Assembly: GCA_963736855.1 (NCBI GenBank)
Contig: CAVTQK010000015.1
Coordinates: 288,001-352,000, forward strand
Direction: 5' to 3'
DNA: 64,000 nt
Source of the DNA: an uncultured delta proteobacterium
GTDB taxonomy: Bacteria > Desulfobacterota > Desulfobacteria > Desulfobacterales > UBA2156
The notes beneath the pieces were generated by a model. It saw nothing but the letters and a program-made list of their open reading frames with translations, was not told the DNA's origin and made no database searches. This document shows positions 11,078 through 27,221 of the stretch, piece by piece (positions within the stretch are counted from its first letter, which is position 1; every line of letters starts with the position of its first letter). A program made the position numbers and the translations under genes.

Positions 11078-13771
11078 ATGACTATCCGTAATCTTGATTT
11101 CATGTTCAACCCCTCTTCGGTCGTACTGGTGGGAGCGAGCCAAAAACCTGGCTCCATCGGTGCCGTCCTTGCTCGAAATTTGGTGAGTGGCGGCTTTAAA
11201 GGCGACATCTTTCCCGTTAATTCGAAATACAAGACCATAGAAGGGCTTCGTGCCTATCCTGATTTGGACAGTTTACCGAAAACGCCGGATCTTGCCGTGA
11301 TCGCCACGCCGCCGGATACTGTTCCGCAGCTGATTGAAAAACTCGGCAGACGGGGTACCCGGTCAGCGGTGGTTATATCGACCGGATTCCGCGAAGGCGA
11401 CAGCAAAAAAGGACAACAGTTGTGCGCCCGAATGCTCGACTCGGCCCGTCCCCATCTGCTGCGCATTATGGGCCCCAACTGCTTGGGGATCATGGTACCC
11501 GGGGTGGGCCTTAATGCGAGTTTCGGCCATGTCCAACCCCTTAACGGAAATATCGCGTTTGTCGCCCAGTCGGGAGCGGTTCAGACCTCTGTACTTGACT
11601 GGGCCACGTCGAAGGGAATCGGGTTTTCACATTTTGTGTCCGTGGGCAACATGTCCGATGTCGATTTCGGGGACATGCTCGATTATCTGGCCGCCGATTT
11701 TAGTGCCCAAGCGATCCTGCTTTACATCGAGAACGTTACCCATGCCCGTAAGTTCATGTCTGCGGCCCGGGCGGCGGCCCGGATGAAACCTGTGGTCGTG
11801 GTCAAGGCCGGACGCCATTCCGAGGGCGCCCGAGCCGCCGCTTCCCATACCGGCGCATTAGCCGGCGCCGATGAAGTTTACAATGCCGCCTTTCAACGGG
11901 CTGGGATGCTGCGGGTGATGGACATGCAGGCCCTCTTCGATGCCGTAGAAACCTTGGCCATGTCTCACCCGTTTCCAGGAGATCGTCTGGCCATTTTGAC
12001 CAATGGCGGCGGCATAGGCGTGCTGGCCACCGATGTTCTGATCGATAAAAAGGGGCGCCTGGCCGAGCTGTCTCCCGAAACCATCGCCCGTCTGAACAGT
12101 GTGCTCCCGGACACATGGTCACATAATAACCCGGTGGACATCGTTGGCGATGCCCCGCCGGGTCGCTATATCGATGCGTTAAAGGCACTCCTCGAGGATA
12201 AGGGTGTGGATGCCTTGCTTGTTTTAAACTGCCCTACGGCAGTGGCCTCAAGCACGGAGGCCGCCTGGGCGGTGGTCGACACGCTGAAAGAAAGCGGTTC
12301 AAAGGCAGGTTCCCGGGGAATTTTCACCAGTTGGCTGGGGATAGATTCCGCCCGCGAGGCCCGCAAAATATTTGCCGAAAACAGGATTCCGACCTATGAA
12401 ACACCGGCCGAGGCGGTTCGCGGATTTATGCAGATGGTTCGCTACCGCCGTAGCCAGGAAATGCTGATGGAGACACCAACCAACATCCCGGAAGTCTTCA
12501 AGCCAGAAACGGATAAGGCCCGAGGGATTGTTAACAAGGCGTTATCTCAAGGCTGTATCTGGCTGACCGAGACTGAGGCAAAAGCCGTTCTGGCCGCTTA
12601 CAAAATCCCCGTGGTCCAGACATACGAAGCGGCTACACCCGAACAGGCAGGTGAGATTGCCGCCAAGCTGGACGAATCAGTGGCGTTAAAGATCCTATCC
12701 CCGGATATTACCCACAAGTCGGACGTGGGGGGTGTGGCATTGAATCTTACCTCTGAAGAAGCGGTGAAAAAAACCGCACAGGTCATGAAGGAACGAATCC
12801 GCGAGAGACTACCCGATGCGACGATATCAGGATTTACGGTACAGCCGATGGTGCACCGCCCCAACGCCATGGAACTGATTGTCGGGGTCAGTGATGATAT
12901 ACAGTTCGGTCCGGTGATTCTGTTCGGCCAGGGCGGTACGGCCGTGGAGGTGATTCAGGATAAGGCCATTGCCCTGCCACCGCTTAACATGCAGCTTGCC
13001 CGAGAAGTAATGAGCCGCACGCGCGTATGCCGCCTGCTTGAAGGTTACCGTGGCAAGCCGGCCGCAGATTTGGACAGCATTGCGCTGACCCTGATCAAGG
13101 TGTCGCAACTGATCAGCGATATCGCAGATATCGCTGAACTGGATATCAATCCGCTGCTTGCCGATGAACAGGGGGTGGTGGCACTGGACGCACGCATTAA
13201 GGTGGTCAAATCGCATCTGCCCGCTGCACAACGACTGGCGATTTGTCCTTACCCCAAGGAGCTTGAGGAGACGCTCAAACTTTCCGATGGCCAAACGCTG
13301 CTGCTTCGCCCTATACGGCCGGAGGACGAACCGGCGTTTCAAGCGCTTTTCTCCAGACTCTCCATGGATGAGATCCGCATGCGATTTCTGCATGCCATGA
13401 AAATATTATCTCATAACATGGCGGCGCGTTTGACCCAGATCGATTATGACCGGGAGATGGCACTGGTCCTTTGCGAGCAGACCACTCAAAAAGAACCGGA
13501 GCTTCATGGAGTGGTACGAATTGCGGCGGATCCGGACAACGCACGCGCGGAATTCGCTATTCTCATTCGCCGCGACATGACCGGCATGGGCTTAGGCCCG
13601 ATGCTCATGCGCCGCATTGTCGATTACGCCAAGAAACGGGGTATCGGTGAGATTTTCGGGGAAGTGTTGGCCGAGAACAGGTCCATGTTGAGGATCTGCG
13701 AGGCTTTCGGATTTAAAACAAGACGCGATCCGGAAGAACCCGGTGTTATGATCGTTTCATTGGCGCTGTAA
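11078..13771 (+). CDS. Pat/YfiQ-type protein lysine acetyltransferase (NDP-forming acyl-CoA synthetase domains plus C-terminal GNAT)
   Basis: CoA-binding fold, GPNCLG, QSGA, AASHTGALAG, NPVD, HKSDVGGV ATP-grasp, DINPL; GNAT part LRPIRPEDEP...LTQIDYDREMA...AEFA...G.GLG. Confidence 0.92.
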   Translation: MTIRNLDFMFNPSSVVLVGASQKPGSIGAVLARNLVSGGFKGDIFPVNSKYKTIEGLRAYPDLDSLPKTPDLAVIATPPDTVPQLIEKLGRRGTRSAVVISTGFREGDSKKGQQLCARMLDSARPHLLRIMGPNCLGIMVPGVGLNASFGHVQPLNGNIAFVAQSGAVQTSVLDWATSKGIGFSHFVSVGNMSDVDFGDMLDYLAADFSAQAILLYIENVTHARKFMSAARAAARMKPVVVVKAGRHSEGARAAASHTGALAGADEVYNAAFQRAGMLRVMDMQALFDAVETLAMSHPFPGDRLAILTNGGGIGVLATDVLIDKKGRLAELSPETIARLNSVLPDTWSHNNPVDIVGDAPPGRYIDALKALLEDKGVDALLVLNCPTAVASSTEAAWAVVDTLKESGSKAGSRGIFTSWLGIDSAREARKIFAENRIPTYETPAEAVRGFMQMVRYRRSQEMLMETPTNIPEVFKPETDKARGIVNKALSQGCIWLTETEAKAVLAAYKIPVVQTYEAATPEQAGEIAAKLDESVALKILSPDITHKSDVGGVALNLTSEEAVKKTAQVMKERIRERLPDATISGFTVQPMVHRPNAMELIVGVSDDIQFGPVILFGQGGTAVEVIQDKAIALPPLNMQLAREVMSRTRVCRLLEGYRGKPAADLDSIALTLIKVSQLISDIADIAELDINPLLADEQGVVALDARIKVVKSHLPAAQRLAICPYPKELEETLKLSDGQTLLLRPIRPEDEPAFQALFSRLSMDEIRMRFLHAMKILSHNMAARLTQIDYDREMALVLCEQTTQKEPELHGVVRIAADPDNARAEFAILIRRDMTGMGLGPMLMRRIVDYAKKRGIGEIFGEVLAENRSMLRICEAFGFKTRRDPEEPGVMIVSLAL

Positions 13772-13793: not shown

Positions 13794-14048
13794 CTACGGG
13801 TTGATTTTCGATTTCAAATACGCGATGCAGCCCTTTAATGTTGCCAGCTGCGGGTAGTCTTCCTCGGGGATTTCTACTTTAAGCTGTTCTTGAAGCGCAA
13901 CAGCGAAGTTCATAAAATCGACTGAATCGAAATCGAACTGGTTGCGTAATCGATCGGCGGGATCGAGGTTCTCAATATCAGCTTCCGGCGCAATCTTACC
14001 GATAAGGTCCAGGGCCACTTTCTTGATTTGATCTTCGGTCAACATCAA
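13794..14048 (-). CDS. Acyl carrier protein
   Basis: 84 aa, acidic; FDSVDF phosphopantetheine-Ser motif; IPEEDY..L.TL. Confidence 0.85.
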   Translation of the reverse strand: MMLTEDQIKKVALDLIGKIAPEADIENLDPADRLRNQFDFDSVDFMNFAVALQEQLKVEIPEEDYPQLATLKGCIAYLKSKINP

Positions 14049-14369: not shown

Positions 14370-14655
14370 AGTGAGGTCTGGAGGGTCCCGCAATGGAGGT
14401 GAGCGTAACGAACCGGAACGAAGGGACCCTTCGAAGGGGTCCCCTGGGGTGGTGTTTCCCGGGCTTAATTGCCCGAGCACGGATGTGCCTGGATCAAGTT
14501 GAGGCATGTTTAACTACCCGGCACAGGCAAGGGGAGAAGGGGAAATTGAACGGGCTGGCGCCCAAGAAAAGGCGGAGGAAGGCAAACCTTGTCAATACTC
14601 TTGCCGAGAAGGTGAGATCGTTGGAGGCAGAGAAGCGACCACAGCGTAAGAGGCG
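14370..14655 (+). pseudogene. Degenerate IS3-family transposase OrfA fragment
   Basis: GERNEP-like leader and LTT..RQGEKGKLNGLAPKKRRRKANLVNTLAEKVRSLEAE, resembling IS3 OrfA C-termini; frames broken. Confidence 0.6.
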
Positions 14656-17349
14656 ATGGAGCGAACGTTTTCTATGAGAATTCACCAACTTCAAATTGAA
14701 GAGGCTCTTCACAGCCTTCGGAGTTCTGTCACGGGGCTTTCTGTCGATGAGGCGCAAAAGCGACTGGCTGAATTTGGTCCAAATCTCATAGAGCGCTTTA
14801 GAAAGGAGCACCTTGCGTTAAAACTGCTAAAGGAATTCACGCACTTCTTTGCCGTTATCCTGTGGTTGGCGGCAGGCCTGGCCTTTTTTGCAGAGTGGAG
14901 CGAGCCTGGCCAGGGGATGCTCACACTGGGTTTCGCGATCGTGGGCGTCATTGTGATCAACGGTTTCTTTTCATTTTGGCAAGAATACCGCGCAGAAAGA
15001 GCGGTCGCGGCTTTGCAGAAGCTGCTCCCCCAACTGGTTAAGGTATTGCGCGATGGGAATGCTTCCCAGATACCGGCCTCCCAATTGGTTCCGGGAGACA
15101 TTATTTTCCTATCGGAAGGCGATGACATTCCAGCGGACTCCAGACTGATCGAAGCGTTTGGTGTGCGTGTGAATAACGCGACGATTACTGGAGAGTCCCT
15201 TCCAAAGGGCAGAGACACGCATGAAAGCCACGAGGAGGAGTTGCTTCAGGCCAAGAACGTCGTCTTGGCCGGGACAAATATGGTTGCGGGGGATGCGAAG
15301 GCCCTAGTATTTGCCATAGGCATGAGGACTGAACTCGGTAAGATCGCTCACTTAACGCAGACGTCAAGCGAAACGCCATCCCCGCTTCAGAAAGAGATCG
15401 CGTATGTGAGTCGAATCGTGGGGATTCTGGCTGTTGGGTTAGGGGTCCTTTTCTTTTTTATCGGTCGTGGAGTGGGGCTGTCGTTTTGGGGGAACTTTAT
15501 CTTTGCCATCGGAATCATTGTGGCCAATGTTCCGGAGGGACTTCTTCCCACCGTTACGCTTGCACTTGCTATGGCCTCGCAGCGGATGGCCAGGCGAAAT
15601 GTCCTGGTTCGTCATCTTCCGGCGGTCGAAGCTTTGGGTTCGGCTACAGTGATCTGCACGGACAAGACTGGGACACTGACAGAAAATCGGATGGCGGCGC
15701 GAGAAGTTTTTTCCCCTTCCATGAATCAACCCTGCCATCTGAATGAGGTTCTTCAAAGAAAGAATTTATCCCCAATCCTTTATTACGCAGCATACCGGTG
15801 TCAGAATCTTAAGAGATCAGGAAATGGCAGTCCGGGGCAATGGCTGGGTGATCCCACGGAGATTGCCCTGGCTGAAATGGCTCGAAAGGCTATTCCTGAA
15901 CTGAAGGATTCACCTATGGTAGATGAAGTTCCTTTTAGTTCGGATCGAAAATATATGTCCACACTTCATCAAGAAGCGTCTGGTCTTGTCTTGTATTCCA
16001 AAGGCGCTTTGGAGACCCTCTTACCCCTTTGTTCCGGAATTCAGCTTAAGATACCCGAGCGTCTTGAGGCCGATACTCGATATCGTCTTTTAAAGGTCGA
16101 AGCAGAAATGGCCAGGCGGGGTTTGCGGGTACTTGCTTTTGCTTATCGCCCGGTTCCATCAAGCTATTCACGGGAGTGCCTTGAGGAAGACTTGATTTTT
16201 TTGGGTCTGGTGGGGTTAGAAGATCCGCCACGCAAGGAAGTCCCTCAATCCATTCAGAAATGTCGTGAGGCAGGTATTAAGGTGATCATGATCACCGGGG
16301 ATCATCCATATACAGCCGAAGCCATCGGTCGAGAAATCGGGATGATTTCTTGCAAAGATCCTGTTGTGGTGACTGGCGTAACGCTGAGAAAAACCTCGGA
16401 GACAGAACTTCAACTTCTCTTGAATGCTCCTGAAATCATTTTTGCTCGTGCAGACGCAGATCAAAAGATGAGGATTGTGATTGCTCTTAAGAAAAAGAAG
16501 GAGGTTGTTGCTGTGACGGGCGACGGAGTGAATGATGCCCCGGCGCTCAAGTTGGCCGACATTGGAGTCGCCATGGGAGTAAAAGGGACGGATGTGGCAA
16601 GAGAGTCTTCAGATATTATTCTAATGGACGACAATTTTTCAAGCGTCGTGGCAGCCATTGAGGAGGGGAGAGCGGTTTTTTCGAACATTCGGAGTTTCAT
16701 GACCTACATTTTGACTTCCAACATCCCAGAAATCATTCCTTATCTGGGTTTTGTCCTTCTCAAAATTCCCCTCGCCCTGACCATCATCCAGATCTTGGCC
16801 ATCGATTTGGGGACAGATCTCTTTCCCGCTCTTGCGCTTGGAGCAGAAAAACCGGATCCGGATGTCATGAAACGCCCCCCGCGACCTCGTAGCGAACGGT
16901 TGTTAAACAGGCCTCTCTTCTTTCGGGCTTATCTGTTTCTTGGGTTGATGGAAGCAGCCGCATCTCTGGCGGTGTTCTTCCACGTGTTATACGGAGGAGG
17001 ATGGCGATTTGGAGGAATGTTGTCCTATTCAAACCCACTCTATCTTCAGGCCACTACTGCGGCACTGAGTGCAGTGATTGTGATGCAGGTGGCAAACGTG
17101 TTTATGTGCCGGAGCGATCACAAATCCGTCTTTTCATTTTCGTTGTTGAGCAATCCGCTGATCTTGTTCGGGATTGCCATAGAAGCGGTTATCATCTTGT
17201 TGATTGACTATACGCCCTGGGGCAATCTACTCTTTGGCACAGCCCCGATCTCATGGGATGTATGGCTTTTCATGGTTCCCCTTGCGGTCGGAATGGTTAT
17301 GGTGGAGGAAACCAGAAAATGGATCTATAGGCGTATTCGCTTTCCCTGA
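14656..17349 (+). CDS. Cation-transporting P-type ATPase, P2C (Na+/K+-ATPase-like) signature; start 14656 or 14674
   Basis: TGES, ANVPEGLLPTVT, DKTGTLT, KGA, TGDGVNDAPALK, LTSNIPEI, ILAIDLGTD. Confidence 0.95.
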   Translation: MERTFSMRIHQLQIEEALHSLRSSVTGLSVDEAQKRLAEFGPNLIERFRKEHLALKLLKEFTHFFAVILWLAAGLAFFAEWSEPGQGMLTLGFAIVGVIVINGFFSFWQEYRAERAVAALQKLLPQLVKVLRDGNASQIPASQLVPGDIIFLSEGDDIPADSRLIEAFGVRVNNATITGESLPKGRDTHESHEEELLQAKNVVLAGTNMVAGDAKALVFAIGMRTELGKIAHLTQTSSETPSPLQKEIAYVSRIVGILAVGLGVLFFFIGRGVGLSFWGNFIFAIGIIVANVPEGLLPTVTLALAMASQRMARRNVLVRHLPAVEALGSATVICTDKTGTLTENRMAAREVFSPSMNQPCHLNEVLQRKNLSPILYYAAYRCQNLKRSGNGSPGQWLGDPTEIALAEMARKAIPELKDSPMVDEVPFSSDRKYMSTLHQEASGLVLYSKGALETLLPLCSGIQLKIPERLEADTRYRLLKVEAEMARRGLRVLAFAYRPVPSSYSRECLEEDLIFLGLVGLEDPPRKEVPQSIQKCREAGIKVIMITGDHPYTAEAIGREIGMISCKDPVVVTGVTLRKTSETELQLLLNAPEIIFARADADQKMRIVIALKKKKEVVAVTGDGVNDAPALKLADIGVAMGVKGTDVARESSDIILMDDNFSSVVAAIEEGRAVFSNIRSFMTYILTSNIPEIIPYLGFVLLKIPLALTIIQILAIDLGTDLFPALALGAEKPDPDVMKRPPRPRSERLLNRPLFFRAYLFLGLMEAAASLAVFFHVLYGGGWRFGGMLSYSNPLYLQATTAALSAVIVMQVANVFMCRSDHKSVFSFSLLSNPLILFGIAIEAVIILLIDYTPWGNLLFGTAPISWDVWLFMVPLAVGMVMVEETRKWIYRRIRFP

Positions 17350-17387
17350 TCCGGATCAACCGCAACCAAAAGCCTCTTACACAGCGA

Positions 17388-17558
17388 CATGATGTGCAGA
17401 AAAGACGCAGCGATGAGAACCCCTGCCGCGAAACACATGAAATAGGTTGTATTGTGATGTTCCCAGCCGGAAAAGCGTCGGATCGTGTAGATGCCTAGGG
17501 ACGTAACGAACGCCGCCAGAGTGCTGGTGGTAAATGCCGTCCAGAAGGTATTTTGCAT
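17388..17558 (-). pseudogene. ZIP-family metal transporter, N-terminal fragment
   Basis: TM1-TM2 only (AAFVTSLGI...FMCFAAGVLIAASFLHIM); similarity appears to end just past the ATPase stop codon. Confidence 0.65.
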
Positions 17559-17584: not shown

Positions 17585-17974
17585 TTACTTTTTTGGAGTT
17601 TCCGACGAAGTTGGAACCAGCCCGGACGATGCAAACTGCTCCAGCGCCTCCAGCGCCTCGCATGCATAGACCACCGCCGGTCCGCCACCCATCATAATGG
17701 AGATACCCAGGGTCTCCAAAATCTCCTGTCGGGTGGCGCCAGCCCGGATGGCATCATGCACATGGTAGGCAATGCATCCTTCACACCGGGCCGTGATCCC
17801 GATGCCCAATGCGATGAGCTGTTTTATTTTGGCGTTAAGAGCGCCTGGCGCGGTTGTCGCGCCGTTGAGTTGGGCAAACGCCGACATGGGGCCGCGCAGC
17901 TCTCTCGCCAATTTGGCCGACAACTTTTGCAAATGCTCATAAAATAGAGGGTACTCGTCCTTCATTTCGTGCAT
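17585..17974 (-). CDS. Carboxymuconolactone decarboxylase/AhpD-like protein
   Basis: GALNAKIKQLIALGI...RCEGCIAYH...GATRQEI.E...MGGGP; CxxC motif. Confidence 0.9.
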   Translation of the reverse strand: MHEMKDEYPLFYEHLQKLSAKLARELRGPMSAFAQLNGATTAPGALNAKIKQLIALGIGITARCEGCIAYHVHDAIRAGATRQEILETLGISIMMGGGPAVVYACEALEALEQFASSGLVPTSSETPKK

Positions 17975-18041
17975 CTCCTCTTAGAGCAAGGCGCGGCCGA
18001 TGGCTGAAGACAACGTCCGGTCAGCCAACCAGCGGCCGCGG

Positions 18042-18305
18042 CTATAAAGAAAAGCGGATCACCGCGTCGCGGGCGGAGAGGTAATCGAGCATTTCCGATA
18101 GGGTATTGAGCTTCCCATAATCCGACTCGGGAACGGTGACGCCGAGCTCCTCATCGATGCGGATAAAGAAATTCAGGGCATCGAAAGAGTCGATATCGAG
18201 TGTTTTGCGTATGTTTTCGTCCGGCGCCAGGGCGCTTGGGTCCGACTCGGGAGCGATCCGCTTGAGTATCCCGAATATGACGTTTTTGATCTCATCGTTG
18301 TTCAT
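18042..18305 (-). CDS. Acyl carrier protein
   Basis: [20 protein letters not shown]...[12 protein letters not shown]...[12 protein letters not shown]; start overlaps the E2 stop. Confidence 0.88.
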
Positions 18306-19590
18306 AGCTTTGAGGGCTCCTGAAGGTGGCGGTTCAAGGCATCGAGGAACTGGGCGCCGCGATGGCCGTCGGTGGCCCGGTGGTCCGCTGCAAGGGTCGC
18401 CGTCAGGACCGGCCGCACCCCGAGCATGCCGTTTTCGGCCCAGGGTTGCTCCATGGTCTTGCCGAATCCGACCAGGGCCACCTGGGGCGGGTAAATGACC
18501 CCGTAAACCGTCTCGACCCCGAGGTCGCCCAAATTGGTGACGGTGACGGTGGCATCCGTCATCTCGGAACTGCGCAGCCCTCCGGATCGGGCGCGCATAA
18601 TAAGGTCCCGCAGGGTCGACATAAGTTCGTCCAGACACTTTTCATCCGCGTTTAGAATGGCCGGTGCGATCAGGCCGCCCTGCCGCAGTGAGATCGCAAA
18701 ACCGATATGGATCGCTTCTGATATCTGATGACGGTCCTCGATCCAGTAGCCGTTGAGTTCCGGCACATCCCCCAGGGCGAGCGCCACCGCTTTGATGAGC
18801 GGAACGACGGGCAATATCCGATCCTTGATCGGGCGCTTGATATTTTCCGATTCCAGCCAACGCAAGGTGCGGCTCATATCGATGCCGTGTCTGGAGATAG
18901 TAGTGGGGAATTTCCCGCTTGGAGCGCGCCATGGTCGCTGCGATGGCCCGTCGCATGGCAGTCTGATAATCTTTGGCGGCGGGCTTTTCAGCAACCGGGG
19001 CACTGGGGGGCACCCCTTTTTGTGGTGCTGCGCTCCGCTTTTCTTCGATCGGCGTCGGAGCGGTCTTTTCCAGGGGCTGAGATAGCGCCGTTGCAGCGGC
19101 CCTTTTAACATCCTCCGCACTATCGCGCCGTCCGGCCGGTTCCCGCAAGAGTGGATAGATCAACGAAGCTCTCGGCAGCCAGCTTGCGTGCATAAGGAGA
19201 GGCTTTGACCCGTCTGGCGCCTGCGGCTGGAAGAGATGGCCGTGATTTCTCTTTTTCCAGCCCGGGTGCCGGCTCCGGCACACCTTCGCCTCCCGCCGGC
19301 GCCTGGGAAGCCTCCTTGGGGGGCGCTTTATCCGGCGCTGAGGCCTTTGGTTCGGCCTCTGTTCGAATGATGGCCATGATCGTGCCCACTGCAACCCTTT
19401 GGCCCGGTTGGACGAGAAGCGCTTCAATGATGCCGTCTTCGTACACCTCGATCTCGATGGCGGCTTTATCGGTCTCAATGACGGCGATGACATCCCTCCG
19501 TTTGACATGGTCACCGGGTTTTACCCGCCATTCAAGAAGCGTGCCCGCCTGCATATCCGAGCCCAAACTGGGCATGCGAAATTCAACCAT
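18302..19590 (-). CDS. pdhC: Dihydrolipoamide acyltransferase E2 (frameshifts near 19135 and 18890)
   Basis: Lipoyl domain [38 protein letters not shown], spread over three frames. Confidence 0.88.
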
Positions 19591-20588
19591 TGGCGCCCAC
19601 CATTTTTCGGACGAGGTCTACGATCTTATCCGTCTGCGGCAGGACCGCCTCCTCCAGGTGCCTGGCGTAGGGCATGGGTACTTCAACACTGCAGAGGCGC
19701 TCGACGGGAGCGTCCAGCTCGTAGAAGGCGCCCTCCATGATTCGCGCGCCGATCTCGGCCGAAATGCTTCCGCTGCGCCATCCCTCATCCACAATGAGCG
19801 CACGGTGCGTCTTGGCGACCGATTCCAGGAATGTCTTTTCATCCAGCGGGCGCAGCGTGCGCAGGTCGATGACCTCCGCTTCGATCCCTTGCTTGGACGA
19901 GGATTTCCGCCGCATCCAGCGATTTGTAGAGGCTCGCCGAGTAGGTGATGATGGTGATATCTTTTCCGGCCCTGCGCACACGGGCTTGATCGATATCTAC
20001 CGCACCGGCATCGGCGGCAAGCGTCCCTTCCAGGTTGTAAAGCCCGCTGTTTTCAAAGATGAGCACCGGGTCCGGGTCCTGCAGAGCGGTCCAGAGCATG
20101 CCGCGCGCGTCCTCGATGGTGGCCGGGCTGAGCACTTTGATGCCTGGGATATGGGCATACCAGCCCTCGAGGGAGCGGGAATGCTGGGCCGCCAATTGCC
20201 GGCCGCCGCCGGTCGCCATGCGGATGACGATGGGGACATTGAACTGTCCGCCGGACATGTAAAGATAGACGGCGGCGGTGTTGATGATCTGGTCGGCGGC
20301 CAGCAGGCTGAAGTTGACCGTCATGACCTCCACGATGGGGCGCATGCCGCCCAGGGCCGCACCGATGCCCGCGCCCACGAACCCGGATTCGGAGAGCGGG
20401 GTATCGCGGATCCTTTCCGGGCCGAATTCTTCGAGCAATCCTTTGCTCACCGCAAAGCACCCCCCATACCGGCCCACATCCTCTCCCATGAGGAAAACCC
20501 GTTCGTCTTTTTGCATGGCCTCCCGGATGGCTTCGCGCACGGCTTCACGGTAGGTGAGCTTTCGCAGGTCCATATCGCCGATGGTCAT
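19583..20588 (-). CDS. pdhB: Pyruvate dehydrogenase E1 beta-like (frameshift near 19895)
   Basis: GEDVG.YGG, DTPLSE, AAQHS; then [12 protein letters not shown]...LDAPV.R in the next frame. Confidence 0.9.
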
Positions 20589-21554
20589 GGCATCCTCCGT
20601 TCCGAATAGACGAAGCGAGTCAGATCTTCGAGCGGCTCCCAGGTGCATGCCTCGGCAAAGGCGACGGCTTCGTTGATCTCCCGGGCCACGTCGCGCTCGA
20701 TCTCTTCGATGTCGACATCGCCAAGGAGTCCTTCACTTTTCATCTTCTGCGTGAAGGTCGCGATCGGGCAGCGCTTTTTCCATTCCTCGACTTCCGCTTT
20801 GGTTCGATAGAGCTCCGGGTCGTACATGGAGTGGGCCCGAAAACGATAGGTGCGGCATTCCAATAAAAACGGTTTCCCATTGGACCGAATCGCCTCGGCC
20901 GCCTTTTTCGCAGCCGTCTCGACCGCCAGAACATCCATGCCGTCCACCGCCGCTGAAGTCACGTCGTAGCTCGATGCCTTGCGGGCGATATCCATGACGG
21001 CACTGTTCGTATTTCAGCGCCGTGCCCATGGCGTACAAGTTGTTTTCGCAAACGAACAGCACCGGCAATTGCCACAGGGAAGCCAGGTTCAAGCTTTCAT
21101 GAAACTCCCCCTCGGCGACAGCGCCTTCGCCGAAAAAGCAGCATGTGACGCGCGGTTTTTGCTGCATTTTGTCCGCCAGGGCCAGACCGACCGCAATGGG
21201 AAGACCGCCGCCGACAATGGCATTTCCTCCATAAAACCTCGTTTTGTCATCGAAAAGATGCATGGAACCGCCTCGACCGCGGCTGCACCCTTCCTGTTTT
21301 CCGTACATTTCCGCCAGAATAGCACCCGCGGGAACGCCCCGTACGAGCGCATGGCCATGTTCGCGATAGGTGGCCACAATGGCGTCCTCCTGAGTCAGCG
21401 CTTCCAGGACGCCGACGGCCACTGCCTCTTCTCCGTCATAGAGGTGCAGAAATCCGCGTATCTTCATGGCGCTGTAAAGTTCGGCGCATTTTTCCTCCAG
21501 ACGCCGGATGCGAATCATGGCGCGCAGCAGGTGCAATGCATGATCGCGGTCCAC
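20585..21554 (-). CDS. pdhA: Pyruvate dehydrogenase E1 alpha-like (frameshift near 21000)
   Basis: [24 protein letters not shown]...ENN ThDP motif, [11 protein letters not shown]. Confidence 0.9.
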
Positions 21555-21590
21555 CGCGTTCGTCTTTGATTTTCAGTGCACTTTTGGTTT

Positions 21591-23359
21591 TCATTCTGAA
21601 TCCTCCAGTGTCGAGAGGTCACCTTCGGGCAGACCCAACTCGCGGGCCTTGAGCAACCGCCGCATGATCTTGCCGGCCTTGTTTTTGGGAAGGTTCGGCT
21701 TGAAATCGATCTCTTTGGGTGCCACGGCCGAACCGAGCTTTTTACGGGCAAAACCGATGAGTTCCAGGCGTAGTGCATCGCTGGGTGCGATTCCCGGCTT
21801 GAGGGCTGACAAACGCTTTGACGATTTCCCCGATGAGCGGGTCCGGCTTTCCGATAACGCCTGCTTCGGCAACGGCGGGGTGCTCCATGAGCGTGCTTTC
21901 GACTTCGAAGGGGCCCACCATGTGGCCGGAGGTCTTGATGATGTCATCGGCGCGGCCCACGAACCAGAAGTATCCGTCCGCGTCGCGTTTGGCCAGATCT
22001 CCGGTCAGATACCAGCCTCCGACGAAGCACTTTGCGGTAGCGCTCCTCGTCGTGCAGGTAGCCCCGAAACATGGATGGCCAGCCCGGCCGGAGCGCCAGT
22101 TCACCCTGGACGTCCGGCTTCTTTGATCACTTTGACGGTATCTTTGTCGATGCGCTGGACGATGGCTGCCTCGATTCCGGGAAGCGGGCGTCCCATGGAA
22201 CCGGGCCGGATCTCCATGGCAGGAAAATTGGCGATCATGATGCCGCCCGTTTCCGTCTGCCACCAGTTGTCATGGATCGGCAGCCCCATGGCCTTCAGTC
22301 CCCAGACCACGGCCTCGGGGTTGAGCGGTTCGCCGACGCTGTGAATGACGCGCAGGTGACTCAGATCGTACTCGCGGGCCGGCTCGATGCCCAGGCGCAT
22401 GAATCTGCGGATGGCCGTGGGCGCCGTGTACCAGACGCTCACCTTCTGGGACGCCAGGATTCGGCACCAGCGCATGGCGTCGAAATCCGCTTCATCGACG
22501 ACGTTGGTGATTCCATGCAGGAGAGGCGAAATGATGCCATAAGAAGTTCCTGTCACCCATCCGGGGTCGGCCGTGCACCAGAAGACATCGTCCGGGTGAA
22601 AATCCATGACATATTTGCCGGTCATGTAATGGATGAGTGCGGCGCTGTGCGCATGGAGGGCGCCTTTGGGCATGCCGGTGGTGCCGCTGGTAAAGTGCAG
22701 GAACGCGATATCCTCCGGGTCGGTCGGTGGGATGCAATAGGTGTCGGAAGACTCCGCCATGAGCCTGGGCAGCGACAGGAGACCGTTTCCCAAATGGTCC
22801 TCGGCATCCACCAGGAGCACATGCTTGAGCTTGGGCAGGGTGTCCATCAGCTGACTCACCTTCTGCCGGTAGTAACGTTCGGTGGTCAGCAGGATTTTCG
22901 CATCCCCTCGGCTCAGCCGCTGATAGATGGGCTCCGGACCAAAAGCGGAGAAGAGGGGACAAAAGACGCTCGTGTTTTTGAGGATTCCCAAAGCGGCGAT
23001 GTACAGTTCGGGAATGCGGCCCGCCAGAACACGGAGACCGTATCGCCCTTGCCGATTCCCAGTCCTTTGAGAATATTGGCAAAGCGGTTGCTCTGCCCTT
23101 TCAGCTCGCCATAGGTGAAACTCACGGATTGCCCCATCGCTCCCAAGCCATCGCAGGGCCACGTGGTCGCGAAGCCGTCCTTCGGCATGACGATCGACCG
23201 CTTCGTGAGCGATGTTGAGCCCTTTGCCCTCCGGAAGCCCCTGCAACTCACCGCGGATGGTATCCCAGGAAAAATTGGCAAAGCGTAGTCGGCATAATCC
23301 AGGAGATTCGGAACAGTCTTCCATGATTCCGGATGCTTTTGAATAGAGGTCCAAAGCAA
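21591..23359 (-). CDS. acsA: Acetate-CoA ligase (AMP-forming), about six frameshifts
   Basis: [71 protein letters not shown] across frames. Confidence 0.88.
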
Positions 23360-23509
23360 GTTCGCACCTCGCTCAATGCTGTCTTAAAAAAGGGGTGCGT
23401 CGTCTTTGGTCATTATAGATAACGATAAACGGGAACTTGTTTTTTATGAAAAGAACTATGGCAGAGGTATGCTGGTGTGTCAATGTCTACAGATGTGGGA
23501 CCTACATGA

Positions 23510-23527
23510 AAAGATGAATTCATCTTT
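23510..23527. promoter_or_regulatory. Perfect 18-bp palindrome upstream of acsA; candidate operator
   Basis: AAAGATGAATTCATCTTT, ~150 bp upstream of the acsA start. Confidence 0.4.
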
Positions 23528-23731
23528 CAGCAATATCCGCGCAAAAGCGTGCATCAGATGAAAAGCGCAGGTCACGTCCTGTCAAGGTTCCTCGGAGTCG
23601 GCTTGCAGGAGCTGATTTCAAACCACCTCAAGCTGCGATAGTCAGCGGAAGAAATTGTCTGAAATCACTCATCAACTGTAAAAGAAAAGCCAAAGCTGCT
23701 GCCCATGCCGGGAACAAATAAAGTAACCCGC

Positions 23732-24142
23732 CTAAAGTCCCTCTATTTTCTCGGCTATAATTTTCGGCAGGGGTATGGCCTTCCAGGAATGATCGATGGC
23801 CACAAAGGTGACGCTCCCTTCGGCAACCAACCGAGTCTCCGGAGGGCGGTAAAATTGAAACTGAAAAACAATGGCCTTTTCCTTGACTTCTTTGATCGAG
23901 GTGTGCATTTCAAGCATATCACCATAATAGGCCGGTATAAAAAAGCGGCAATCCGCCGCGACTTTGGGCATGCCGAATTTTTCTTCCTGGTTGCGAAAAA
24001 ATGTTTTCGGTGACATCCCTATATGGCGCAAGAATTCTTCAATTCCTTGATGAAAATAACGAAAATAAGCAACAAAATAAACAACGCCATACGGGTCGGT
24101 ATCGCCGAAGAGAACATGTACTTCGGTTTTATGAATAAGCAT
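23732..24142 (-). CDS. Acyl-CoA thioesterase (YbgC/4HBT hotdog family)
   Basis: VLFGDTDPYGVVYF..YFRYF; C.F..PA.YGD; AGGAGG RBS. Confidence 0.88.
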   Translation of the reverse strand: MLIHKTEVHVLFGDTDPYGVVYFVAYFRYFHQGIEEFLRHIGMSPKTFFRNQEEKFGMPKVAADCRFFIPAYYGDMLEMHTSIKEVKEKAIVFQFQFYRPPETRLVAEGSVTFVAIDHSWKAIPLPKIIAEKIEGL

Positions 24143-24239
24143 GTTACACCTCCTGTAAGGAGACCTTTGAAAATTTAGCCGGATTCCAGGTGCGGCGATT
24201 TTGAGGAATTTTTAAAAAGAATTTTATCGGAAACGTGCT

Positions 24240-24583
24240 TTACTGAGCTGTTGGACAGTGCCGCTGAGCTTTTCGACAAGCACTACAAGTCTCGAAAGCA
24301 GATGGAGGGCCACGTCGATGAGCTCTACCGGCAAATCGGCCAGCTCAAGGTGGAAAACGATTTTTTAGCACGAAAGCTCGGCTTATGAGCCAAAAGCAGC
24401 GCAGGCAGATGATTGAACCTGAGCGTCTCGAGCCGAGCATTTCACAACAGTATCAGTTGTTGGGTATAAGCCGCTCGTCGTTCTATTATGTCCCACGGCC
24501 GATGGATTCCGAAGATTTGGAGCTGATGCGGCTGGTATTACCTACGTTCCCATCAGGCTGCCCAAACAACGGGGTCCACCGCA
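24240..24583 (+). mobile_element. Internally deleted IS3-family element
   Basis: OrfA end (ELYRQIGQLKVENDFLARKL*), OrfB start (SISQQYQLLGISRSSFYY.P...EDLELMRL), then directly an IRR-like CTGCCCAAACAACGGGGTCCACCGCA. Confidence 0.85.
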
Positions 24584-24638
24584 ATTTTATATAAATTTTG
24601 TTTATCAGTTCAGTTTTGAAAATATGAACAGTATTTTT

Positions 24639-26669
24639 TTATTTATCCCCCTTTTCAATAATTCTAACATCCGCCACCAGCACCCCGTCCGGATAGACGA
24701 AGACCGGATTAAGATCGATTTCAACGACTTCGGGATGGTCTTCGGATATACGCGCTACAGTCAACAGGCAGTCTGCCAGTGCCTGTTCATCCAAAGCCGG
24801 CCGGCCGCGATAGCCGGAAATAAGCCTGTAGCCTTTGATTTCACGGATCATGGTCAATGCATCTTCCTTTGTCAAAGGCGGAAGCCTGAGGCGCACATCC
24901 TGGAAAATCTCCACCATGATACCGCCAAGGCCGAAAAGAATCACCGGGCCGAATTGAGGATCGCGATTCATTCCCACAATGATCTCCAGTCCGGGTGGCG
25001 CCATTTTGCTTACCAGTACGCCATACACCTGTGCTTCGGGATTGACGCGTTTCACAGCCGACAGCAACGCATCATAAGCTTTTTCAACCGCTTCAGCAGA
25101 ATTTAGATCAAGCTTTACCCCTCCTATATCGCTCTTGTGTAGAACGTCCGGTGAGCTGATTTTGAGCGCCACCGGGAATCCTTGTTCCTGAGCAATCTGA
25201 ACGGCATGGGCCCGGCTGTTCGCCAGCGCAAACTCGGTACAGGGCAAGCCTTGTTCGGCAATTCGCGAAAAGGCCTGATGAAGCGGCAGTTGACGACCGG
25301 CCGCCGGAACGATTAGCGTCGGTTTCTGTGGCGGATCCAACATTTTTCGCTCAAGCACCTGGGCCAGCGCCTTTATTCCGCGTTCGGGAGTGGGAAAGAC
25401 CGGAATTCCTTTAAGATGCATGAGTTCACGTTCGTGGCGTTCGACGTCTGCACCCCCATAAAAGATAATCAGTTCATTGGAATCGGGTGTCACGACACGG
25501 GAGGCGTCTTCTACCGGGTCTCCGAAGATCAACCCCAGGGTGTCATAGTGCTTTCGGGTGACCTCAATGACATCACCGAACATTTGAGCAGTGGCATCAC
25601 CGGTGAGATCAATGGGGTTGGCCTTGATGGCATGGGCCGGGATGAGGGGCGTTATCTCCTCCACCAACTCTTGGGGCAGCGGCGATACGTTTAAGCCTTC
25701 TTGTTCGGCCTGATCCGTTGCCAGAATCGCAGCACCTCCGGATGTGGTGATAAAAAGAATACGATTGCCCTGTGGTGGTTTCAGATACGCCAAGGCCTTG
25801 GCGTAGTCATAAAACTCTTCCGCCGTGTAAGCCCTGCAAATTTTATATTTTGAAAAAAGAGCTTCATAAATGGCATCAGCACCGGCCAAGGCCTTGGTAT
25901 GGGACTCGGCTGCCACCTTTCCTTTCGGCGTACGGCCGGACTTTAGAACCACAAGGGGCTTTTGAAGCTGTTCCACCGCATGAATGAACCGTTCGGGACG
26001 TTTGATCCCTTCGATATATGCAGCAATGACCTCGGTGTTGGGGTCCTGATTGAAATAGGCAATAAGGTCGGTTTCATCGACGTCGGCCCGATTGCCCATG
26101 CTGATGAAGCTTGAAGTCCCCAGTTTATCCTCGGATAACCAGTCCATCATGGCAGCACCGACCGTGCCGCTCTGGGAAATAAGTGCGATCTTGCCCTGGT
26201 AAGTCAGCAGCGGCCAGGACGCACACAGGGGATGATGGGGATTGTTTACGCCCTGGCAGTTGGGTCCGATGACACGGACGCCGTACGTTCGGGCATTTTC
26301 AACCACCTGCTGCTGAAGTTCTTCTCCTTCAGGCCCGGCCTCGCTAAACCCGCCGGTAATAATCACCACAGCCTTTATACCGGCTTCACCGCATTCCCGT
26401 ACTGTCCCGGGAACGAATCGGGCCGGGATGATGATGACGGCGAGATCCGGTGCTTCGGCAATATCTTTGACACTCACATGGCAGGGAATATCCAGAATGG
26501 CGTCGGCTTTGGGGTTGATGGGGTAGACATTCCCCTTAAAGCCGCTGTCCAGTATATTTTTCATGATTTCATGGCCCAGTTTGCCCGGGCTTGTCGACGC
26601 ACCGATAACGGCAACGCTTTTGGGTTTCAAAACGGCGTCCAATTGGCTAATGAGATTCGCTGCCGGCAT
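24639..26669 (-). CDS. ADP-forming acyl-CoA synthetase, fused alpha-beta
   Basis: PKSVAVIGAS, GPNC.G, SQSG, ESHT phospho-His, NPIDL, HKSDIGGV, DLNP; no GNAT domain. Confidence 0.92.
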   Translation of the reverse strand: MPAANLISQLDAVLKPKSVAVIGASTSPGKLGHEIMKNILDSGFKGNVYPINPKADAILDIPCHVSVKDIAEAPDLAVIIIPARFVPGTVRECGEAGIKAVVIITGGFSEAGPEGEELQQQVVENARTYGVRVIGPNCQGVNNPHHPLCASWPLLTYQGKIALISQSGTVGAAMMDWLSEDKLGTSSFISMGNRADVDETDLIAYFNQDPNTEVIAAYIEGIKRPERFIHAVEQLQKPLVVLKSGRTPKGKVAAESHTKALAGADAIYEALFSKYKICRAYTAEEFYDYAKALAYLKPPQGNRILFITTSGGAAILATDQAEQEGLNVSPLPQELVEEITPLIPAHAIKANPIDLTGDATAQMFGDVIEVTRKHYDTLGLIFGDPVEDASRVVTPDSNELIIFYGGADVERHERELMHLKGIPVFPTPERGIKALAQVLERKMLDPPQKPTLIVPAAGRQLPLHQAFSRIAEQGLPCTEFALANSRAHAVQIAQEQGFPVALKISSPDVLHKSDIGGVKLDLNSAEAVEKAYDALLSAVKRVNPEAQVYGVLVSKMAPPGLEIIVGMNRDPQFGPVILFGLGGIMVEIFQDVRLRLPPLTKEDALTMIREIKGYRLISGYRGRPALDEQALADCLLTVARISEDHPEVVEIDLNPVFVYPDGVLVADVRIIEKGDK

Positions 26670-26810
26670 CGTTTACCCCCTTTGGTGATAACTGAGTAAT
26701 TACAAAAGCAAAAAAGTGCAGCAAAAACTTCTTATTTATTTGAAAGCAACTCGTGAGGCCTGCATTTGGAGATGCGACTCAAAAGACCTGATCGGTTGGC
26801 TTCCCATCCA

Positions 26811-27221
26811 CTATCGAGTTTTTGCTTTTTCGGCCTTTTTTGCCACCCGGTTGTTGAACTTTTCGGCATTGATGATAAAACGTATGTGGACGGCCTCGCC
26901 AATCTTCTCCACTTCGTCATACCCCTCCACTTCAAAGGTCAGTTTGCTGCCGTCGATTTCTGTCAGTTTGGTACTGAATCTCACCTTCATTCCCAAAGGA
27001 GTTGCAGCCATATGCTTGAAATTCATCCCGATCCCAACGGTTTGCTCACCTTTGCCAAGATAAGGGAGAACCAGGTCTGCGCAGACCTCTTCAATATGTC
27101 CCACCATGGCGCGTGTGGCATAGACATCGGGCACATGAGGATAAACTTTTTGTGCTGACATATCTTCAGTGGTTTCCCGTTCGATTTCATGGGTCATGCC
27201 GGCCTTGAGCGCTTCAGTCAT
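26811..27221 (-). CDS. FlK-like (fluoroacetyl-CoA type) thioesterase
   Basis: VYAT..MV..IE, TVG....KH.AATP.G, H.RFII; Thr/Glu/His triad present. Confidence 0.85.
   Translation of the reverse strand: MTEALKAGMTHEIERETTEDMSAQKVYPHVPDVYATRAMVGHIEEVCADLVLPYLGKGEQTVGIGMNFKHMAATPLGMKVRFSTKLTEIDGSKLTFEVEGYDEVEKIGEAVHIRFIINAEKFNNRVAKKAEKAKTR

Follow-up and report, generated by a model that had tools for sequence, protein, structure and literature searches.

A pyruvate dehydrogenase gene cassette with its own acyl carrier protein, and a tentative route from pyruvate to acetate

What is the use of a set of pyruvate dehydrogenase (PDH) genes that includes no gene for dihydrolipoamide dehydrogenase (E3) and is joined instead to genes for an acetate ligase and an acyl carrier protein (ACP)? 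The question is raised by a 64,000-nucleotide stretch of DNA from an uncultured delta proteobacterium of the Desulfobacterota (GCA_963736855.1, contig CAVTQK010000015.1, positions 288,001 to 352,000; this whole stretch is called the window below), in which six minus-strand genes run from 23359 to 17585 in the order acsA, E1a, E1b, E2, ACP and a small protein with a CMD/AhpD core. The first-pass annotation proposed that the AhpD-like protein replaces E3 and, as an alternative or addition, that E2 and Acs act on the ACP instead of coenzyme A (CoA). It is the second idea that gains support here. The acsA-E1a-E1b-E2-ACP cassette is a real, widespread and apparently unstudied variant of PDH, and its point of note is the link to the ACP, not to AhpD. 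We propose, at a probability of roughly 0.38, that it encodes a CoA-free energy pathway from pyruvate to acetate found across phyla, in which a trimeric E2 would acetylate a private ACP, AcsA would make ATP in dormant or hypoxic cells, and Pat or AhpD would plug into the carrier or the lipoyl arm in some lineages.

The cassette and its distribution

The window operon begins with acsA (21591..23359), an AMP-forming acetate ligase of the PRK04319 type belonging to an ACP-linked clade. It is followed by pdhA (20585..21594), encoding E1 alpha, whose best family is TIGR03182 and whose thiamine diphosphate (ThDP) motif reads GEGA...ENN, and by pdhB (19583..20588), encoding E1 beta. The E2 gene pdhC (18302..19590) encodes one lipoyl domain (ETDKA), a peripheral-subunit-binding domain (PSBD) and a catalytic domain. 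The dedicated ACP (18042..18305) has the motif DIDSFDAL with its Ser site intact, its start overlaps the E2 stop, and its relatives are 81 amino acids long. The gene order given by the first-pass annotation is confirmed in the sequence, as are the motifs it had named (GEGA in E1a, ETDKA and DHRATDG in E2, and CEGC in the AhpD-like protein). The overlaps it had described from E1a to ACP also exist, but it had overlooked the overlap of acsA with E1a: all five core genes are coupled by overlapping stop and start codons, and the AhpD gene (17585..17974) is uncoupled, lying 68 nucleotides downstream of the ACP gene with its own ribosome-binding site. GEGA has no diagnostic value, since both residues occur among the 46 cassette E1a sequences (Glu in 11, Asp in 35), and we rejected the motif as a sign of changed chemistry. 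Because the window genes are split by small indels, the protein analyses below are based on intact relatives, mainly the locus L011.

An ACP gene stands directly behind an E2 gene in 106 of 109 loci, and acsA is present in 49 of the 50 loci with enough upstream DNA. The cassette was seen in Desulfobacterota, Acidobacteria, Cyanobacteria, Alpha- and Betaproteobacteria and Actinomycetota. Named records comprise Desulfobacterota metagenome-assembled genomes, an acidobacterium, a cyanobacterium and a Flavobacterium that has no acsA and carries a D-lactate dehydrogenase-like gene after its ACP; plasmid copies occur in Desulfotalea, Methylocystis, Rhodococcus, Leisingera, Burkholderia, Streptomyces and Cupriavidus. 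Only 6 of the 401 sampled genomes of the window's own phylum contain the cassette, and its G+C content is 0.595 versus 0.538 for the window, as expected of a mobile unit. Its frequent neighbours, in several annotated plasmids, are genes for universal stress proteins (USP), Hsp20, CBS, BON and Crp/Fnr proteins, PEP synthase and alcohol dehydrogenase, and elsewhere at times D-lactate dehydrogenase; we take such neighbours to mark low-oxygen or dormancy islands. The acsA-E1a-E1b-E2-ACP unit is a mobile cassette of stress islands with a wide distribution. No adjacent nonribosomal peptide synthetase (NRPS) or polyketide synthase (PKS) gene is annotated in six of seven plasmid loci or found beside the window copy, and two AMP-binding genes precede one copy. 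Similarly, no consumer gene constant beside the cassette was found in the loci compared. A description of the cassette was not found in the open-access literature searched, which did not cover subscription papers and supplements.

The acceptor site of E2 and its predicted partner

The E1 proteins have the features of canonical PDH: E1a and E1b are of the PDH type, E1a carries the ThDP/Mg motif G[DE]G...NN, and its best score is to the pyruvate dehydrogenase family, the window pieces falling below the cut-offs only as fragments. The E2 is equally conventional in its catalytic parts. Its lipoyl Lys is found in 75 of 75 cassette sequences and a PSBD-like motif in 72 of those 75, the catalytic His is present in 79 of 79, the catalytic Thr/Ser and Asp are also kept, and the closest solved structures are mammalian E2p. 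The acceptor side of the enzyme is another matter. A preprint (bioRxiv 10.1101/2020.07.24.212647) describes Arg450 of A. vinelandii E2 as forming a salt bridge with the 3'-phosphate of CoA, and the C-terminal hydrophobic residues of E2 as forming the trimer-trimer contact that builds the 24- or 60-mer; the CoA site faces the core interior, according to PMC8626477. We placed the Arg450 column by counting on the 1EAA alignment (His610 = chain 216), 17 residues beyond the Pro of the PH motif; in L011 it is Leu234. This column holds Leu or Ile in 79 of 79 cassette E2s versus Arg or Lys in 59 of 62 other E2s, and position 248 of L011 is Leu in 79 of 79 versus Thr, Ser or Gly in 62 of 62. The distance from the catalytic His to the C-terminus is 26 residues in 72 of the 79 cassette E2s versus at least 28 in 61 of 61 measurable others (the comparison set of 62 rows excludes one open-ended row, and one tail was not measurable). 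These differences in the CoA site and the tail are unchanged after thinning at 85% identity. The window's own E2 retains the catalytic Thr/His/Asp, carries the same Leu in place of the Arg that contacts the CoA 3'-phosphate, and is at least two residues short at its C-terminus. The cassette E2 probably stays a trimer, in which the CoA face, otherwise buried within the core, would lie exposed; since the CoA site points toward the core interior, a trimeric E2 would open it to a protein partner. Elsewhere in this genome there is an AceF-like E2 (G000:C18:15425-16378) that lacks an Arg450 equivalent and whose catalytic His is followed by DC instead of DG.

The first-pass annotation had suggested modelling of the E2-ACP pair. 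When the ACP was modelled together with three copies of the E2 catalytic domain, the predicted complex scored 0.64, against 0.01 for the best of three controls, and passed a mark that is reached by 116 of 157 solved pairs and 2 of 215 mismatched pairs, although the job, with its own alignments and three copies, is unlike the tool's calibration. At least 92% of contacts are shared between runs, and the partner pLDDT is at least 83. In the predicted complex, Ser40 of the ACP contacts Leu248, Pro249, Val250 and Asp344 of E2, and the interface includes Leu234, at the Arg450 position, as well as the cassette-specific Arg291. The ACP itself is predicted to be a normal four-helix carrier (pLDDT 91.7), and the matches listed by a fold search with it are ordinary ACPs, 15-26% identical to it, with no E2-ACP complex among them. 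Considering the residue changes together with the predicted docking, we think it likely that E2 transfers acetyl to the cassette ACP instead of CoA.

We also looked for natural fusions of this ACP. Of 20 longer matches, 11 were examined and none was accepted: the E2-ACP candidates lack the catalytic His motif ahead of the ACP and look like frameshift products, and three further candidates are AcsA fragments joined to the ACP, which were not counted. A sister ACP group (DSMDFLDIVMELRK) is found in clusters of the form fabF-acp-two phytoene-desaturase-like genes-fabG-fabZ-fabI (L274, L276-L279, L281 and L284), some of which also contain genes looking like oleABCD. We take these clusters to resemble those proposed for unusual, ladderane-type lipids.

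AcsA, the private carrier and competing explanations

The cassette AcsA is of the B. subtilis type (PRK04319), which is shorter, and intact copies score above the family cut-off. The WW of the acetate pocket and the catalytic Lys are present in 40 of 40 cassette AcsAs. Of two arginines of Salmonella Acs, Arg526 and Arg584, whose roles presumably bear on CoA as thiol acceptor, the residue aligned to Arg526 is Met or Leu in 40 of 40 but is changed in some non-ACP relatives too. In a quick AcsA tree of 46 rows (the E2 tree used below is also a quick tree), all ACP-linked AcsAs, comprising 20 from the cassette, 5 adjacent to an ACP without pdh genes and 1 with its ACP on another contig, fall on one side of a branch with SH-aLRT 100. 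The five loci that hold acsA-acp without pdh genes are L233-L236 (G063, G131, G250 and G302) and L273, a second locus of G268. In four of the genomes with such a pair (89-100% complete), no E2 was found at E<=1e-20 and no lpd above the cut-off. That the ACP has been kept after the loss of E1 and E2 suggests that AcsA works on the ACP. The persistence of these pairs without pdh, the residue changes at the CoA site and the predicted complex together support the claim of the first-pass annotation that E2 and Acs act on the ACP instead of CoA. At the acsA-acp loci, a Pat-type gene is adjacent, nearby or elsewhere in the genome, and genes for ATP synthase, antiporters and CBS proteins adjoin several of the loci.

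Since two enzymes share a private carrier here and no third is constant, the simplest arrangement is that one loads the carrier and the other unloads it; the decarboxylation by E1 is irreversible, and therefore AcsA would be the unloader. E1 would likely decarboxylate pyruvate, the acetyl group is predicted to go from E2 to the ACP of the cassette and not to CoA, and AcsA running in reverse would convert acetyl-ACP, AMP and PPi to acetate and ATP. The lipoyl arm would likely be reoxidised by the E3 of the host, and the resulting NADH would need a sink. The irreversible E1 step could drive the private carrier to almost full acetylation and leave the CoA pool free, a condition that would promote ATP formation when cells are starved and short of oxygen. 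An AMP-forming Acs of Syntrophus offers a precedent, making ATP out of acetyl-CoA with AMP and PPi at an ATP/AMP ratio of 0.17 (PMC4992975). For the route as a whole, from pyruvate to acetyl-ACP and on through reversed AcsA to acetate and ATP, we would put the chance somewhat short of even.

A number of observations weigh against this proposal. The precedent is imperfect: ATP formation in Syntrophus rests on high PPi and the absence of a cytoplasmic pyrophosphatase, as stated in PMC4992975, and the loop that sets the bias of Syntrophus Acs1, described in PMC13404658, is not present in the shorter AcsA type of the cassette. Three of the 62 other E2s, one of them in this genome, likewise have no Arg450 equivalent, and the predicted E2-ACP interface shows no significant enrichment of cassette-specific residues (5/16 versus 34/217, P = 0.14); for this interface the departure from the tool's calibration also counts. 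The Arg aligned to Arg584 of Salmonella, which we take to be a CoA contact of Acs, is kept in 40 of 40 AcsAs, and for this reason AcsA may still use CoA. Furthermore, E2-free AcsA-ACP pairs would need another loader unless AcsA itself is the loader, and one Flavobacterium locus has E1-E2-ACP without acsA. No clear conserved FNR box was found 5' of the window copy, matches being confined to some proteobacterial copies.

The E2-free pairs also suit a different account, in which E1/E2 (from pyruvate) and AcsA (from acetate and ATP) are alternative loaders of one ACP and the acetyl-ACP is consumed by something else, most plausibly by a Pat-type lysine acetyltransferase, or else by a pathway for fatty acids or other acyl transfer whose genes lie elsewhere. 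It would have AcsA run forward, the usual direction of Acs, and it gives a place to a gene 4 kb from the window operon, the pat at 11078..13771 on the plus strand, which encodes NDP-forming acyl-CoA ligase domains (SHTG His intact) and a C-terminal GNAT and belongs to a clade that tracks the cassette ACP family in the phylum. Convergent with it, on the minus strand at 13794..14048, is a second ACP, which belongs to the same family and shares 37% identity with the first. The cassettes of the window, L013, L037, L240 and L241 are flanked by Pat and a second ACP; in L013, L240 and L241 this block comes directly after ahpD, and in the window it is inverted with respect to the operon. L236 has pat-acsA-acp in one run, and in Rhodococcus a gene with USP-like domains fused to a Pat-type GNAT (L025:2740-4251) precedes acsA. 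A close Pat (GNAT at least 59% identical) occurs in 15 of the 27 ACP-bearing genomes tested, including all 4 that are E2-free, and in just 3 of 201 phylum genomes, all of them ACP-bearing. However, a close Pat is missing from the other 12 of the 27, each of which has the full cassette, so that Pat does not appear to be an obligatory consumer of acetyl-ACP; no consumer gene is constant beside the cassette, and Pat acetylates Acs, which also explains why the two genes would be neighbours. We regard the two-loader account as possible but doubtful. The E2-free pairs speak against an ordinary second PDH and an Acs that both make acetyl-CoA, with the ACP as a bystander or as octanoyl donor for E2 lipoylation, since the ACP stays with AcsA where there is neither an E2 nor an E3 to lipoylate. 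That explanation can point to the wholly canonical catalytic residues, to lipB or lplA after the ACP in 5 of 95 loci, to the other E2s without the Arg, and to new invariant arginines that could bind the CoA phosphates; it has to contend with the loss of the Arg in every cassette E2 and the predicted docking of Ser40 at the CoA face, and we judge it quite unlikely. The flow might also be reversed, with AcsA making acetyl-ACP, E2 passing the acetyl group to a lipoyl arm reduced by E3, and E1 releasing a reduced two-carbon product, for instance acetaldehyde or acetoin, which would spend NADH at low oxygen. The chemistry of E2 acyl transfer is reversible, the neighbours are of the hypoxia type, and alcohol dehydrogenase genes stand beside some copies, but such a cycle would spend two ATP equivalents per turn in energy-short cells, E1a scores best to the pyruvate dehydrogenase family, and the E2-free pairs would be left unexplained. 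It seems to us very improbable.

Least probable of all is that the AhpD-like protein replaces E3 and makes the operon a self-contained pyruvate-fuelled system for thiol or peroxide reduction, the headline of the first-pass annotation. The protein does match the AhpD core (TIGR00778, 41 bits against a cut-off of 27.8), with CxxC and His present (CxxCxxxH). It is a single-core protein of 129 amino acids whose closest structure is 5DIK. A close homologue was found in 5 of 201 class-sample genomes, each of which either is this genome or has the gene beside an ACP or Pat, and the genome has five AhpC/TSA matches. A pyruvate-using E1/DlaT/AhpD/AhpC system has been reported for mycobacteria (PMC7437000, citing Maksymiuk 2015). 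Nevertheless, AhpD follows the ACP in only 18 of the 95 loci with enough downstream DNA, a sample in which kin of the window are over-represented, and in none of 7 plasmid copies, so that the co-occurrence sought in gene neighbourhoods fails in 77 of 95 loci. In the quick E2 tree of 65 cassette rows, 11 AhpD-bearing rows lie in one branch of 13 (SH-aLRT 92), two members of which are without AhpD. The Glu of the KELIA motif, which we take to be the proton relay residue of AhpD, is Gln in 14 of 15 sequences and Glu in the 4 solved relatives shown. None of the genome's five AhpC/TSA matches lies in the window, the operon has no linked ahpC or other peroxiredoxin gene, and the genome has seven CMD matches. 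Being confined to 18 of 95 loci and one E2 branch, AhpD cannot, on this distribution, be the general reoxidant of the cassette. It is better seen as added late in one sub-lineage centred on the Desulfobacterota, where it would at most give dihydrolipoyl electrons a side outlet. An accessory, pyruvate-fed thiol relay through AhpD alongside E3, which would be compatible with the proposed route to acetate, is by analogy conceivable but unlikely.

E3 is available in trans. The operon is indeed E3-less, as the first-pass annotation had it, and lpd is rare in such operons, being absent from all 28 cassette loci with long flanks and lying directly after the ACP in 2 of 95. The genome is not E3-less: it is 100% complete by the tool's figure, and a search of it revealed two lpd genes above the TIGR01350 cut-off, in the contexts sucA-sucB-lpd and E2-lpd-lipB-lipA, as well as a second lipA and one phosphopantetheinyl transferase match. 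Likewise, lpd is above the cut-off in 19 of 20 other cassette genomes (14/15 and 5/5), which together with the distribution of AhpD tells against replacement of E3. As these genes may serve other complexes, they show the availability of E3 rather than its use by the cassette. The genome also has an lpd-like gene that is split in two (G000:C16:33796-35219).

Condition of the window copy, significance and known systems

In the window, the coding sequences of acsA, E1a, E1b and E2 are each split over several frames, and the stop codon of the ACP gene is displaced, which the first-pass annotation had not mentioned. Comparison with six intact relatives gave 14 indels of one or two bases, 12 of them insertions and 2 deletions (7 insertions in acsA, 2 in pdhA, 1 in pdhB and 3 indels in pdhC). 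Short-read contigs of close kin, from public runs, do not carry 13 of the 14 where listed, and contigs with 0 substitutions over 233 and 272 bases differ from the window by indels alone. No in-frame stops were found in the aligned parts of the window genes, and family-invariant sites are altered at 3 of 589 covered positions, as in intact kin. Given these three lines of evidence, assembly error is the likely cause of the frame breaks. The 14 indels fall within 5.3 kb, whereas the flanking frames of pat (897 amino acids) and an ATPase are open, a clustering that is unexplained and that would suit a decayed pseudo-operon; in view of the missing stops, the conserved sites and the substitution-free contigs, we find decay of this copy improbable, and it would have no bearing on the cassette elsewhere.

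Upstream of acsA there is a weak sigma-70-like promoter candidate on the minus strand (23455..23483; TTGACA-17-CATAGT with an extended TG). The scan found 4 such sites versus 2.5 expected; the promoter and terminator scan as a whole is near chance. Further upstream lies a perfect 18-base palindrome (about 23512-23529) that was not seen in the upstream regions of relatives examined. The same strand upstream (23732-27221) also encodes two thioesterases, YbgC-like and FlK-like, and a second NDP-forming acyl-CoA ligase, none of which was seen as a constant neighbour of the cassette elsewhere, and a stretch at about 24200-24600, upstream of the thioesterase gene, resembles by eye a remnant of an IS3-type transposase. 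On the other side, a fragment of a ZIP transporter directly follows ahpD (17325-17558). A 154-base stretch (14504-14659) is missing from the contigs of two runs; a short ORF around it resembles, by eye, the start of a group II intron gene and has no NCBIfam match.

PDH is the textbook source of acetyl-CoA. If the proposal is correct, an E2 that uses a protein carrier in place of CoA would add a new branch to central metabolism; the module occurs in sulfate reducers, cyanobacteria, proteobacteria and actinomycetes under the plain database labels acsA and pdhABC. If AcsA runs in reverse, the cassette would add a route of substrate-level ATP formation for survival at low oxygen, and a source of acetyl-ACP that bypasses CoA might be of use in pathway engineering. 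The residue changes of E2 and the predicted interface give directly testable sites. Taken by itself, the AhpD side of the operon would amount to a minor variation on something already known.

How the cassette stands to known systems can be seen from five comparisons. It resembles canonical PDH with heterotetrameric E1, of the alphaproteobacterial and mitochondrial kind, in its E1a and E1b families, lipoyl domain, PSBD, catalytic Thr/His/Asp and the presence of E3 in the genome, and differs from it by the lack of lpd in the operon (0/28 long-flank loci), the coupled acsA and ACP genes, the replaced CoA-binding Arg and the apparently clipped C-terminal knob. The trimeric E2p of actinobacteria (AceF/DlaT) also lacks the knob-and-socket contact between trimers, as predicted for the cassette E2; the former is reported to have a three-residue insertion that folds a helix back, whereas the latter has a shortened tail from which the trimer state would follow. 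In the mycobacterial AhpC/AhpD/DlaT system, fed by Lpd or E1, as in the window, an AhpD-core CxxC protein goes with a lipoylated E2 and E1, but the cassette AhpD is a 129-residue single-core protein with Gln for the motif Glu, has no adjacent ahpC and is missing from most copies. Acs1 of Syntrophus aciditrophicus is of the same enzyme class as the cassette AcsA and sets the precedent for ATP from an acetyl thioester, AMP and PPi; it uses acetyl-CoA and has a Salmonella-type CoA loop, whereas the cassette AcsA is of the shorter B. subtilis type and tied to an ACP. In its proposed working the cassette resembles QncN/QncL/QncM of quinocarcin and SclQ1-4 of scleric acid, which likewise combine a ThDP-dependent E1, a lipoyl-E2 and a dedicated ACP with no E3 co-encoded and load this ACP with a two-carbon acyl unit (PMC6335953). 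Those systems take a ketose donor, form glycolyl-ACP, feed an NRPS and have their own phosphopantetheinyl transferase in a biosynthetic cluster. The cassette, with a PDH-like E1, no constant NRPS or PKS neighbour, a coupled acetate ligase and a distribution over stress islands of many phyla, is not a member of that group.

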